Under the pieces are notes generated by a model. It ran no database searches. It had not been told where the DNA came from and was given only the letters and a program-made list of their open reading frames with translations. 64,000 bases of DNA from Candidatus Anderseniibacteriota bacterium (GTDB lineage: Bacteria; Patescibacteriota; Andersenbacteria; UBA10190), in contig JAIOOW010000002.1 of the NCBI GenBank assembly GCA_021414205.1, positions 89,520-153,519 on the forward strand, given 5' to 3'. The position numbers and the translations under genes were made by a program. How positions within the stretch are numbered: position 1 is the first letter of the stretch; each line of letters starts with the position of its first letter. This document shows, piece after piece, positions 12,219 through 15,216 of this stretch.

Positions 12219-12551
12219 GCTGATGGATGGATAATCGCCCGTAACAGGGAGGAAAGTCCGGACACCACAAAAAGGGTGACAGGTAACGCCTGCCCCCTCG
12301 CCCTAAAAAGCAAGGGAGGGATAGTGCAACAGAAACATACAGCCCCTCCTCGGAGGAGCAATGGTGAAATCGTGAGGTAAGAGCTCACGCCCTGTATAGG
12401 TAACTATACAGGGGTGAAAACCCCACCTGGTGCAACCTCAAGTCGACCCGCCTTAAAACGGGTCAGGTAGAGGGCAAAGATTCTAGTAGCGATACTAGAA
12501 CAAGACAGATGATTATCTTCAATGACAGAATCCGGCTTACAGTCCATTAGC
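12219..12551 (+). ncRNA. rnpB: RNase P RNA, bacterial type A
   Basis: GGGAGGAAAGTCCGGACACCACA, GGTAACGCCTG, GTGAAATCGTGAGGTAAGAGCTCACGC and ACAGAATCCGGCTTACAG conserved blocks; P1 GCTGATGGA pairs with TCCATTAGC. Confidence 0.9.
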
Positions 12552-12560
12552 ATATATGCA

Positions 12561-12583
12561 AACCCCCGCCTAAAGCGGGGGTT
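12561..12583. terminator. Bidirectional hairpin terminator between convergent rnpB and rnhA
   Basis: AACCCCCGC-CTAAA-GCGGGGGTT, 9 bp perfect stem. Confidence 0.6.
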
Positions 12584-12586
12584 GCG

Positions 12587-12988
12587 TTATTTCTGCGCGT
12601 CGAGCGCTTCGTTGACGAGTCGATCTGCAATTTTATTTTTACTCCTTGGAACATGCTGAAACGTAAGGGAGGTAAACGCAGGAAACAGTTTTTTGATTTC
12701 TGCGAGCAACTCTTTGAGCTCGTCGTTTTTTACGCGATATTCTCCGCGAACCTGCTTTACTACAAGCTCGCTATCTAAAAAACATTGCACACCTTGAATA
12801 CCTTGCTTTTTTGCTTCCGTGAGCCCGGCAAGCAACGCTCGATACTCTGCCTGATTATTCGTTGCATGGCCGATATACTCGCCATATTCAAGCGGGACAT
12901 TCCCCATTTGGGATAATATAAAACCAATTGCGGCGGGGCCGGGATTCCCCCGTGCTCCGCCGTCGGTAAATAACGTTGCTACTTTCAT
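12587..12988 (-). CDS. rnhA: Ribonuclease HI
   Basis: TDGGARGNPGPAAIG ... NQAEYRALLAGL ... KNKIADRLVNEA. Confidence 0.85.
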   Translation of the reverse strand: MKVATLFTDGGARGNPGPAAIGFILSQMGNVPLEYGEYIGHATNNQAEYRALLAGLTEAKKQGIQGVQCFLDSELVVKQVRGEYRVKNDELKELLAEIKKLFPAFTSLTFQHVPRSKNKIADRLVNEALDAQK

Positions 12989-12992
12989 TGAA

Positions 12993-13262
12993 CTAGCAAC
13001 ACTTGCACTTGCCCTTCATTAACTTCGTAAACCCAATTCCAGCTAGCAGTACTGGCCAAATAATAGACACTGCGCTCTCAGATAACACGCCCCATACTCC
13101 AAGAAGGAACGTAAGAGCAATCAAGATAATCATTACTGGCACCGCCTTGTGGTGAGGGCAGTTACACCCTTTTACGCCACAACACTTTTCACCCCCTGGG
13201 CAATTAGCGCAATCACATCCTTCGCATTTTTTGTCCATGTTTTCCATAAAATTATAGTTCAT
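12993..13262 (-). CDS. Cys-rich small membrane protein (putative metal-binding)
   Basis: CEGCDCANCPGGEKCCGVKGCNCPHH N-terminal cluster, two TM helices, C-terminal KGKCKCC. Confidence 0.5.
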   Translation of the reverse strand: MNYNFMENMDKKCEGCDCANCPGGEKCCGVKGCNCPHHKAVPVMIILIALTFLLGVWGVLSESAVSIIWPVLLAGIGFTKLMKGKCKCC

Positions 13263-13286
13263 TAAGAATAGATTTATACATATATG

Positions 13287-14144
13287 TTACACCGGATGAA
13301 GTAATTTTGAAACCGCTATTTGCAGATGCTCCCAAAAAATTTCTAGGGACGTTTTTTTACATTGTGCAGTCAATCCGCCAATATCTTGAATAGACAATTC
13401 TTTAGAAGCCAAGTTTTTCGGATTGACCATGTAATACATGATAGATGCGGGATTTTCTACGTGCCCCAACCCTAGAGCATGTCCCAGTTCGTGCTCAAGC
13501 ACTAATTGCAAATCGTCATTTTTTGAAAACTCATAAATCGTAATCGTATTCCCCTGATACTCTCCTTGATCAAACTCACGCTGACCGGCATACGTCGTAT
13601 TAAATTGCTGAACATTCGCATTATATGTGCTTACAATTTGCTGCTCTTTGGTAGCAAGGCCGTTTACGGTATCTGCAAGCTTATTCACTGCAACCCGCTC
13701 CTGCTCAAGTTCGTCATAGCTTTTATTGCGATCCTTAACATCTTGCAGATATGCATTTTTTGCCGAGGTATATGAGGCATACGCTTGATCATATTTATTT
13801 TTTGCAGACTGTTGCTGAGCAGAAAGAGTATCAAGCTGATGGGTAAACTGATTTGTTTGATCCACTACTTGCTGGCGCTGATCATATACAAGATTAACAG
13901 TAAATTGAGCGTTCGAATCATATGTAAATAATTGCTTCCCGGATTCATGCTCCCAAACCTTCTCGGCATCTTGAACATCCTTTAAAAAAGTATCTCTTGA
14001 AACATGGAATTGCGGATCTACTCTCCCTATAGAATACGCAATCGGACGAGCGCATGGGGCGGGAAATTCCAGGCTTACCGCAAGATAAAACCCGCCTGTC
14101 AGCACTATTGGCCATACGAGAGCTCGCAATATCTTCATAATCAT
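13287..14144 (-). CDS. Metzincin (matrixin-like) zinc metalloprotease with N-terminal signal/TM and coiled-coil region
   Basis: HELGHALGLGHV (HExxHxxGxxH) followed by SIMYY Met-turn; start at ATG 14144 or 14138 (MIMKILRAL). Confidence 0.6.
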   Translation of the reverse strand: MIMKILRALVWPIVLTGGFYLAVSLEFPAPCARPIAYSIGRVDPQFHVSRDTFLKDVQDAEKVWEHESGKQLFTYDSNAQFTVNLVYDQRQQVVDQTNQFTHQLDTLSAQQQSAKNKYDQAYASYTSAKNAYLQDVKDRNKSYDELEQERVAVNKLADTVNGLATKEQQIVSTYNANVQQFNTTYAGQREFDQGEYQGNTITIYEFSKNDDLQLVLEHELGHALGLGHVENPASIMYYMVNPKNLASKELSIQDIGGLTAQCKKTSLEIFWEHLQIAVSKLLHPV

Positions 14145-14168
14145 ATATACAGTATACTGCAGATAATT

Positions 14169-14687
14169 ATGGAACGAGATGATCAATTTTGGAATATCGA
14201 TACGGCAGCCGGACAATTGCTCCAAGCGCTTGTTTTTACGCATCAGCCAAAAAATATCTTAGAAGTAGGAACATCCAATGGCTACAGCGCTATTCTTATG
14301 GCCGAAATAGCATCCCAATATGGCGGACATATAACAACAATTGAATTCCACGAAAAACGGATTATTTTAGCAAAAAATAATTTACAAAAAGCAGGACTAT
14401 TAAATTTAGTAACTATATTGCAAGGCGATGCGCTAGAAATATTGCATGGCTTCGAAAAAGAACGATTTGATTTCTTCTTCATCGATGCAAACAAAAAACA
14501 ATACGGCGAATACTTTAAAGAATGTATGCGCTTGGCAAACCACGGAGCCATTATTGTTGCCGACAATACAATATCTCATCGTCATAGCTTGGATAGTTTT
14601 TTTAAAGAATTGGAAATAGCAAAAGATTTAGATGTTCTTGAGTCTGAAATCGGAACAGGATTAGTAATAGTCAAAGTAAAAAAATAA
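14169..14687 (+). CDS. Class I SAM-dependent O-methyltransferase (caffeoyl-CoA OMT/YrrM-like)
   Basis: ILEVGTSNGYSAILMA SAM motif I, FDFFFIDANKKQY; start at ATG 14169 (MERDDQFW). Confidence 0.7.
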   Translation: MERDDQFWNIDTAAGQLLQALVFTHQPKNILEVGTSNGYSAILMAEIASQYGGHITTIEFHEKRIILAKNNLQKAGLLNLVTILQGDALEILHGFEKERFDFFFIDANKKQYGEYFKECMRLANHGAIIVADNTISHRHSLDSFFKELEIAKDLDVLESEIGTGLVIVKVKK

Positions 14688-14733
14688 CCGCCATCAAGTA
14701 CAAAGACTCGACGACGGCAACAAGCCTACAGAG

Positions 14734-15216
14734 CTACGCCAAAAGGTTTGGCCCACTCGGAGGATGCATTACAAAGACCACTTCTTTGCGATCGCCTGGA
14801 TTCCAGATCGTAATCATCAAGCTGGACCCAGGCTCGGTGAGTAGCAAGACGTTCTGCGACAATTTGCATTCAACGCATTTGTAACCTTCTTCCATCGAAA
14901 TAATTCCGATGGAAGTGCTGGGGCGACCAGGTTGAGAGTACTGCCACCAAATGCTTTTGATAATCGGCATCGTGCCTGATCGAGTGTATGGCAATCGAAA
15001 TCCTTGCACATACTCCCGCGATCGCAACTTAATAGTGCCAGGACAATAAGGTCCTTCACGTAATTCGAATGGACTGTTCACCGCACTCATTATCACGTGA
15101 ATTGTCTTATCCCACCTTTTCTCAAATCCGCCGGCATAGGCAAAACCAAGAACGCACGCGCCCAGAGCGATCGCAATAACAATAATCGTGAGCATATAAC
15201 GCCTTTCTTGTGGCAT
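14734..15216 (-). CDS. Hypothetical N-terminally membrane-anchored protein; contains three GCGATCGC octamers
   Basis: 160 aa ORF with own TTGACA-N17-TATATT promoter; no family recognised. Confidence 0.5.
   Translation of the reverse strand: MPQERRYMLTIIVIAIALGACVLGFAYAGGFEKRWDKTIHVIMSAVNSPFELREGPYCPGTIKLRSREYVQGFRLPYTRSGTMPIIKSIWWQYSQPGRPSTSIGIISMEEGYKCVECKLSQNVLLLTEPGSSLMITIWNPGDRKEVVFVMHPPSGPNLLA
14788..15175. repeat. Three copies of the HIP1-like palindromic octamer GCGATCGC (14788-14795, 15018-15025, 15168-15175)
   Basis: Exact octamer read three times within 390 nt; no other copy found by eye in the rest of the window. Confidence 0.8.

Follow-up and report, generated by a model that had tools for sequence, protein, structure and literature searches.

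Small LiaI/LiaF-type membrane hairpins with conserved cysteine/histidine motifs in Patescibacteria as candidate metal-binding proteins

Three described systems lie close to the small protein considered here. The mercury transporter MerF (about 81 amino acids, aa) has two transmembrane (TM) helices and two vicinal Cys pairs and is the model of a tiny hairpin that binds and passes on a soft metal; the bacterial metallothioneins SmtA and BmtA are soluble and hold a Zn4 cluster in a Cys9His2 site; and the LiaI/LiaF proteins carry a two-helix membrane hairpin (Pfam PF18917, formerly DUF5668, and PF22570). In a 64,000-nucleotide (nt) stretch of the genome of a Candidatus Anderseniibacteriota bacterium (GenBank assembly GCA_021414205.1, contig JAIOOW010000002.1; hereafter the window), we analysed the gene for an 84-aa, Cys/His-rich protein with two TM helices (positions 12993–13247, reverse strand, stop codon 12993–12995), together with the neighbouring genes for an M10 metalloprotease and an O-methyltransferase. 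The reading that we favour, by a small balance of probability, is that this protein is a stand-alone LiaI/LiaF-type hairpin with a putative cytoplasmic Cys5His2 metal clasp, and that the protease and methyltransferase are functionally unrelated to it. If so, a conserved metal site tethered to the membrane would be relevant to trace-metal management in reduced cells, or to the working of DUF5668 hairpins. Characterised lineage-specific proteins are few in Patescibacteria (the Candidate Phyla Radiation, CPR), and the small protein is a well-defined object, about 60–90 aa long, in which seven near-invariant Cys/His positions surround a LiaI/LiaF-type hairpin; at least 119 species-level genomes carry it.

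Each of these systems resembles the small protein in part. It is similar to MerF in size, in its helix-loop-helix architecture and in having membrane-proximal Cys motifs towards both termini, but its family motif includes His and there is no sequence relationship; the MerF model gave no Pfam match at E ≤ 1 with the window protein or at E ≤ 0.01 with 94 family members. A mer operon context was likewise found in none of 118 loci, where the neighbours are housekeeping genes (all neighbour counts here refer to the 118 species-level loci, among the matches listed, in which the small gene was located). Like SmtA and BmtA, the window protein is small and very rich in Cys, has two His, and offers a similar number of ligands (11 Cys and 2 His). 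Unlike them, it is membrane-embedded, and its family conserves only 5 of the Cys along with the 2 His. No metallothionein model matched it, the only matches at E ≤ 1 in Pfam and NCBIfam being LiaF-TM models, and none matched the 94 members. With the LiaI/LiaF hairpin it has in common the two helices, a Gly-rich helix 1 and a Trp-Pro pair opening helix 2; its family, however, consists of a single hairpin framed by C-x-C-x-[H/C]-H and C-x-C-C, motifs that are absent from generic DUF5668 proteins (e.g. P0335, P0337). The loci showed no LiaSR or LiaH/PspA context of the kind that defines the LiaIH-LiaFSR system; a histidine kinase lies within the surrounding block in 8 of the 118 and is adjacent in one.

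The preliminary description of this locus had placed the three genes where we find them and had taken the small product to be 89 aa long. An open reading frame (ORF) of that length is indeed present (12993–13262, reverse strand, in-frame ATG at 13262) and reads MNYNFMENMDKKCEGCDCANCPGGEKCCGVKGCNCPHHKAVPVMIILIALTFLLGVWGVLSESAVSIIWPVLLAGIGFTKLMKGKCKCC, but its homologues all begin at the methionine of a conserved MEN start (M6, invariant, in the 89-aa numbering), so the gene likely starts at 13247 and encodes 84 aa. Eleven of these residues are Cys (13.1%, compared with 0.79% in the long ORFs of the window; binomial P = 8e-11). A profile search covering 1.84 billion representative proteins recovered at least 378 clusters (at 50% identity) with E ≤ 1e-3, 171 of them with E ≤ 1e-10, from which we conclude that the ORF is a real gene; lengths in the best 150 of the 378 clusters run from 54 to 155 aa. 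No domain fusions of the hairpin were seen among the homologues, all matches being 46–153 aa long without added domains. In public databases members carry at most the label “DUF5668/LiaF-TM domain-containing” (at NCBI, “DUF5668 domain-containing” or “LiaF transmembrane domain-containing”), and literature searches returned no description of the family and nothing relevant on a membrane-anchored metallothionein. Automatic annotation can even miss the functional half of the gene: one NCBI record (K8Q97_00460, Candidatus Andersenbacteria bacterium; protein P0334) calls it as 46 aa (12993–13130, reverse strand) from an internal methionine (MIILIALTF...), dropping the entire N-terminal Cys/His part and with it half of the putative metal site.

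Alignment of 218 members (hmmalign) gave a core of fixed spacing: C-x-C-x-[H/C]-H, TM helix 1, a short acidic loop, Trp-Pro, TM helix 2, Lys and C-x-C-C. The juxtamembrane N-terminal motif, C-N-C-P-H-H followed by Lys in the window protein (13149–13166), has Cys in 207 and 208 of the members at its first two ligand-like positions and His in 210 at its last, while the position between holds His in 176, Cys in 33 and, besides these, only Tyr (in 2). The proline that follows the second Cys is not conserved (Met, Ser, Thr, Gly or Lys replace it). Within the hairpin, helix 1 (13095–13157) is marked by Gly and a Phe-Leu-Leu run, and helix 2 (13020–13079), which also contains Gly, opens with the near-invariant Trp (207) and Pro (210); a Lys (184) then precedes the C-terminal motif, C-K-C-C in the window protein (12996–13007), where Cys occupies the three positions in 213, 211 and 188 members (Tyr replacing the last in 14). 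Conservation of the seven Cys/His positions thus ranges from 86 to 98%, and the distance between the first Cys of the N-terminal motif and the C-terminal motif, 53 residues in the window protein, is the same in 103 of 131 members. Interchange of His and Cys at a single position is classic between metal ligands, and here it suggests metal ligation.

Outside this core the family is variable. The N-terminal tail of the window protein (13167–13247), MENMDKKCEGCDCANCPGGEKCCGVKG, contributes six extra Cys, and tails elsewhere vary in length, with a high content of Gly, Lys, Asn, Cys (7.9%) and Met (7.5%); at least two extra Cys occur in the tails of 52 of 149 members, and at least three extra Met in 24 of 149. 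The N-terminal Cys cluster CEGCDCANCPGGEKCC, which had first been emphasised, belongs to this variable part, and what the family conserves is the CxCxHH motif and the C-terminal CxCC. In composition the accessory tails resemble known soft-metal-binding segments. Several members carry long ones: a 60-aa Cys/Gly/Lys-rich N-terminal extension in L104, C-terminal tails rich in Cys, Gly, Glu and His in P0096, P0103 and L087, Met-rich tails in P0043 and P0023 (e.g. MDMKGMGGMHDMK), and a further long accessory tail in P0065; Cys/His/Met-rich C-terminal extensions occur in some members.

The two TM helices noted at the outset were borne out by structure prediction. AlphaFold2 (AF2) modelled the 84-aa protein as two helices (residues 31–51 and 57–76) at a predicted local distance difference test (pLDDT) score above 90, with the Trp-Pro pair opening the second, as in LiaI/LiaF-like hairpins. 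Across the family, 91 of 94 members matched Pfam LiaF-TM (PF22570) and 88 of 94 matched LiaI-LiaF-like_TM1 (PF18917) at E ≤ 0.01, with best E-values of 3e-08 and 5.1e-10, respectively. A search of the Protein Data Bank (PDB) with the family profile gave no match at E ≤ 1, and Foldseek comparison of the hairpin model with the PDB returned only generic helical hairpins, all at E > 4, which is uninformative. Charged residues are unevenly distributed, with a mean of 1.14 Lys and Arg per protein in the N-terminal flank, 0.23 in the loop and 2.58 in the C-terminal flank, and 0.93 Asp and Glu in the loop. By the positive-inside rule this bias predicts that both termini, and hence both motifs, lie in the cytoplasm, side by side.

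The hairpin would in this arrangement bring the C-x-C-x-[H/C]-H motif before helix 1 next to the C-x-C-C motif after helix 2, and together they could make up a metal-binding clasp of thiolates and imidazoles, with as many as five Cys and two His, for which Zn(II) or Cu(I) would be the most likely metal. Four features lead us to propose a joint metal site of both hairpin ends: the fixed five Cys and two His, the His/Cys interchange, the predicted position at the membrane interface of a reducing cytoplasm, and the Cys/Met-rich tails. The variable Cys/Met/Gly-rich N-terminal tail may supply further soft-metal ligands (the six extra Cys of the window protein). Such a membrane-tethered element could buffer metal or hand it over; alternatively, bound metal could lock the protein together as a stable element of the membrane, possibly an oligomer. 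The initial idea of a metallothionein-like protein on a membrane anchor survives in part, as a two-TM protein with Cys/His clusters that resemble metal ligands, with the site moved to the conserved CxCx[H/C]H...CxCC pair. More tentatively, and with clearly less than even confidence, we propose that the family as a whole may be a class of metal-binding protein that has so far gone unrecognised, in effect metallothioneins or metallochaperones tethered to the membrane by a LiaI-type hairpin. The class would be widespread in Patescibacteria and specific to them, and in these organisms with minimal genomes it would hold or pass zinc, copper or an Fe-S cluster at the inner face of the membrane.

Several observations weigh against a metal-clasp function or limit its support. 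Scans of the window protein against Pfam and NCBIfam, and of 94 members against Pfam, found no match to any metal-binding family, the check by hidden Markov models that had been suggested for this locus. No link to metal transporters or regulators emerged from the 118 neighbourhoods, with a P-type ATPase in only 2 and a CopZ-like gene in none. The window protein itself scores 23.5 bits against LiaF-TM and 16.9 bits against TM1, under a gathering cut-off of 27, and AF2 confidence is low in both of its tails. The topology rests on charge bias only, and if the termini faced outwards the Cys could form disulfides instead. Finally, the tight packing of the M10, small and RNase HI genes leaves room for a lineage-specific link to the protease.

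The strongest competing explanation, which we nevertheless regard as unlikely, is that the Cys and His are not metal ligands but structural or regulatory thiols (disulfides, a redox switch or acylation sites) on a LiaI-like anchor or scaffold acting in envelope stress or membrane organisation. The homology of the TM hairpin to LiaI/LiaF hairpins fits such a role, as do membrane-related neighbours in some lineages (a PLD-type gene at +1 in 6 loci, a bPH_2 gene at +1 in 5, and the histidine kinase found within the block in 8). Two adjacent near-invariant His and a His/Cys interchange are, however, hard to square with disulfide or acylation chemistry, the predicted cytoplasmic location disfavours disulfides, and across the 118 loci the gene has no constant neighbour of LiaS/LiaR or PspA type.

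A second alternative, less probable still, keeps the ligands and changes the cofactor, so that the Cys and His would bind an Fe-S cluster or haem rather than zinc or copper and the protein would be a membrane-tethered redox or Fe-S carrier element. The constant spacing of the five Cys and two His, and the exchange between His and Cys at one of these positions, would also fit such a cofactor, and about 45% of members have a Cys-Pro dipeptide at the motif. The 2Fe-2S sites of mitoNEET-type proteins, with three Cys and one His, likewise begin with CxC and combine Cys with His ligation, a likeness to the family motif that is one of general resemblance. The proline after the second Cys is nevertheless unconserved, neither CDGSH nor any other Fe-S family matched the window protein or the 94 members, the Met- and Gly-rich tails are more typical of Cu(I) or Zn ligands, and no Fe-S assembly genes were found among the neighbours in the 118 loci.

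Whether the small gene works with the genes beside it was addressed through its distribution. A degenerate DNA pattern describing the family core, run against a single genome from each GTDB species, detected the gene in at least 119 species-level genomes, nearly all of them labelled Patescibacteria, and on these data the family appears almost confined to that group. Taxonomic labels in this set call for some care: many TPA_asm records of metagenome-assembled genomes (L012–L130) are titled “uncultured Candidatus Saccharibacteria” or “uncultured Gammaproteobacteria”, which look like placeholder taxonomy (L028 is near-identical to the Andersenbacteria window, and L049, labelled Gammaproteobacteria, is one residue off L108 from Uhrbacteria), and two records labelled Myxococcales/Myxococcaceae (L029, L128) may be mis-binned. 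When all 1,121 neighbouring ORFs were clustered, each family was limited to at most 10 of the 118 loci, the commonest neighbours being an ABC exporter, RecJ, RNase HI, IF-3/L20, a PD-(D/E)XK nuclease, a histidine kinase, a PLD-type enzyme, a bPH_2 protein, a thioredoxin-like protein and a sigma-70 factor. In loci such as L035, L039, L043, L048, L059 and L085 a gene of this kind comes directly after the small gene, the PLD-type (cardiolipin-synthase-like) gene in one sublineage and the bPH_2 membrane protein in another; these +1 neighbours may reflect lineage synteny or a membrane-related theme.

In the window, the M10 protease gene (13287–14144, reverse strand) lies 24–39 nt upstream of the small gene, depending on the start chosen for the latter, and the RNase HI gene (12587–12988) follows 4 nt downstream, all three on one strand. 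Terminator-like hairpins at 12561–12583 and 14687–14718 bracket this unit and, together with the short gaps, indicate that the three genes probably share one transcript. The methyltransferase gene (14166–14687, forward strand) diverges from the M10 gene, their start codons being 21 nt apart rather than the 25 nt first given. In relatives within Andersenbacteria, the Patescibacteria/CPR lineage to which the source names of the closest homologues assign the window, this arrangement sits within about 20 kb of conserved order, GAPDH-PGK-enolase-RecJ-OMT-M10-small-RNaseH-(RNase P RNA)-Bac_transf-glycosyltransferases (OMT, O-methyltransferase), so the adjacency of the trio within that clade carries no specific information. 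Within the 8-kb block around the small gene, tblastn detected M10 in 6 of the 118 loci and the methyltransferase in 6, all of Andersenbacteria type (L028, L030, L036, L078, L097, L116, L118), and about 111 of the 118 have neither; of the 95 loci in which the upstream sequence extends to 1.2 kb or more, 5 have M10 adjacent to the small gene. The trio is broken even within the clade, where L011 (RecJ-M10-small-RNaseH) lacks the methyltransferase and L030 (RecJ-OMT-small-RNaseH) lacks M10. Linkage of the small gene to RecJ and RNase HI recurs in a second lineage without M10 and the methyltransferase (L041, L058 and L092, with RecJ only in L113), suggesting that these two genes arrived later beside it. 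Conversely, on three M10 contigs from outside Andersenbacteria the protease is accompanied by DNA polymerase III gamma/tau and DsbB/DsbA, by a peptidase M16, or by glycosyltransferase clusters, and no ORF with the small-family motif lies nearby.

These data largely refute the proposal, made when the locus was first described, that the three genes form a metal-handling or peptide-maturation module. The co-occurrence check suggested with it turned out negative, homologues outside Andersenbacteria having, among the 118 loci, no M10 or methyltransferase nearby, and within that clade L011 and L030 break the trio. Very improbable, therefore, is a functional module in which the small protein handles or supplies metal for the zinc protease, or is a precursor peptide cut by M10 and methylated by the methyltransferase. 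In its favour are the adjacency of the three genes in the window and several relatives and the short same-strand gap that separates the small gene from M10. Against it, the adjacency is restricted to a single clade with general synteny, and homologues of M10 in other lineages lie among unrelated genes. The predictions also put the M10 catalytic domain outside the cell and the Cys/His motifs in the cytoplasm, conservation peaks in the TM core and flanking motifs, unlike a leader/core peptide layout, and the gene most tightly coupled to the small gene is that for RNase HI, for which no part in a module of this kind is conceivable. As specific candidates, a ribosomally synthesised and post-translationally modified peptide precursor (M10 or the methyltransferase adjacent in 6 of the 118 loci each, in one clade, and the trio broken in two genomes) and zinc delivery to M10 (one-clade co-occurrence, opposite predicted sides of the membrane) were both rejected. 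The best reading of the distribution is that M10 and the methyltransferase are functionally unrelated neighbours of the hairpin protein, kept beside it by Andersenbacteria gene order.

Both neighbours belong to known families. Homologues of matrix metalloproteinases (MMPs) have already been reported in Parcubacteria/CPR (PMC12587646). The 285-aa, membrane-anchored M10 (matrixin-type) zinc metalloprotease of the window starts at 14144, in agreement with an identical database protein (P0162, also 285 aa), and carries the metzincin signature that had been recognised from the sequence, HELGHALGLGH with a SIMYY Met-turn. It matches Pfam Peptidase_M10 (PF00413) at E = 3.4e-11 (43.7 bits; cut-off 24), the alignment covering profile positions 7–154 of 159 across an insertion. 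The AF2 model (pLDDT 93.4) has an N-terminal TM helix (residues 2–26) followed by an MMP-type catalytic fold, in which a two-helix hairpin (89–138 and 143–185), as an insertion, separates the first beta/alpha unit from the active-site half; in Foldseek it matched the catalytic domains of MMP-13, MMP-8 and MMP-12 (probability 1.0, target-normalised TM-score 0.60–0.66). What had been described as a coiled-coil protein ending in a bare catalytic unit is thus a complete MMP-type fold interrupted by that hairpin. Like bacterial and CPR matrixins, the protein has the HExxHxxGxxH motif and Met-turn, the Pfam match and the MMP fold; its differences lie in the roughly 95-residue insertion, the N-terminal membrane anchor and the lack of a pro-domain or haemopexin domain. 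This architecture of about 300 aa is common in Patescibacteria (NCBI name “matrixin family metalloprotease”), and the insertion (residues 89–185) is about 30 residues shorter in the clade of the window than in most patescibacterial homologues. Cys31 is nearly invariant and Cys262 invariant among M10 homologues, which suggests an extracytoplasmic disulfide; the N-terminal anchor and this Cys pair predict a protease domain outside the cell, which, with the predicted location of the Cys/His motifs inside, argues against a direct interaction.

The divergent gene encodes, as had been proposed, a class I S-adenosylmethionine-dependent O-methyltransferase, and its 173-aa product is an ordinary family-3 (cation-dependent type) enzyme. 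It matches Pfam Methyltransf_3 (PF01596) at E = 1.4e-26 (93.5 bits; cut-off 22), and its closest solved relatives are PDB 8c9v (9.6e-24) and 8k1f (2e-21), the latter being TrmR, a tRNA 5-hydroxyuridine methyltransferase. Both the Pfam match and the best PDB relatives assign it to the same family as CCoAOMT and TrmR-YrrM type enzymes, from which it differs in being shorter (173 compared with about 205–245 aa), without roughly 25 N-terminal residues.

The genes further out are also of recognisable types. RNase HI, on the same strand as the small gene, was identified with Pfam RVT_3/RNase_H and NCBIfam RNase HI models, and a full-length bacterial class A RNase P RNA (12219–12555, forward strand; Rfam RF00010, 230 bits) lies between it and the Bac_transf gene. 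The strong terminator-like hairpin at 12561–12583 could serve the RNase P RNA gene and the convergent RNase HI gene alike. On the other side, between RecJ and the methyltransferase, a 160-aa ORF with an N-terminal TM segment (14734–15216, reverse strand) gave no Pfam or NCBIfam match; it is shared only with the closest genome (L028), and since RecJ directly abuts the methyltransferase in more distant Andersenbacteria relatives, it looks like a recent insertion. The conserved block is broken elsewhere too: in three relatives bearing the protein P0003 (L001–L003, positions 1085–1750), an IS200/IS605-type Y1 transposase (Y1_Tnp) and a 23S rRNA-intervening-sequence-like protein lie between enolase and RecJ.

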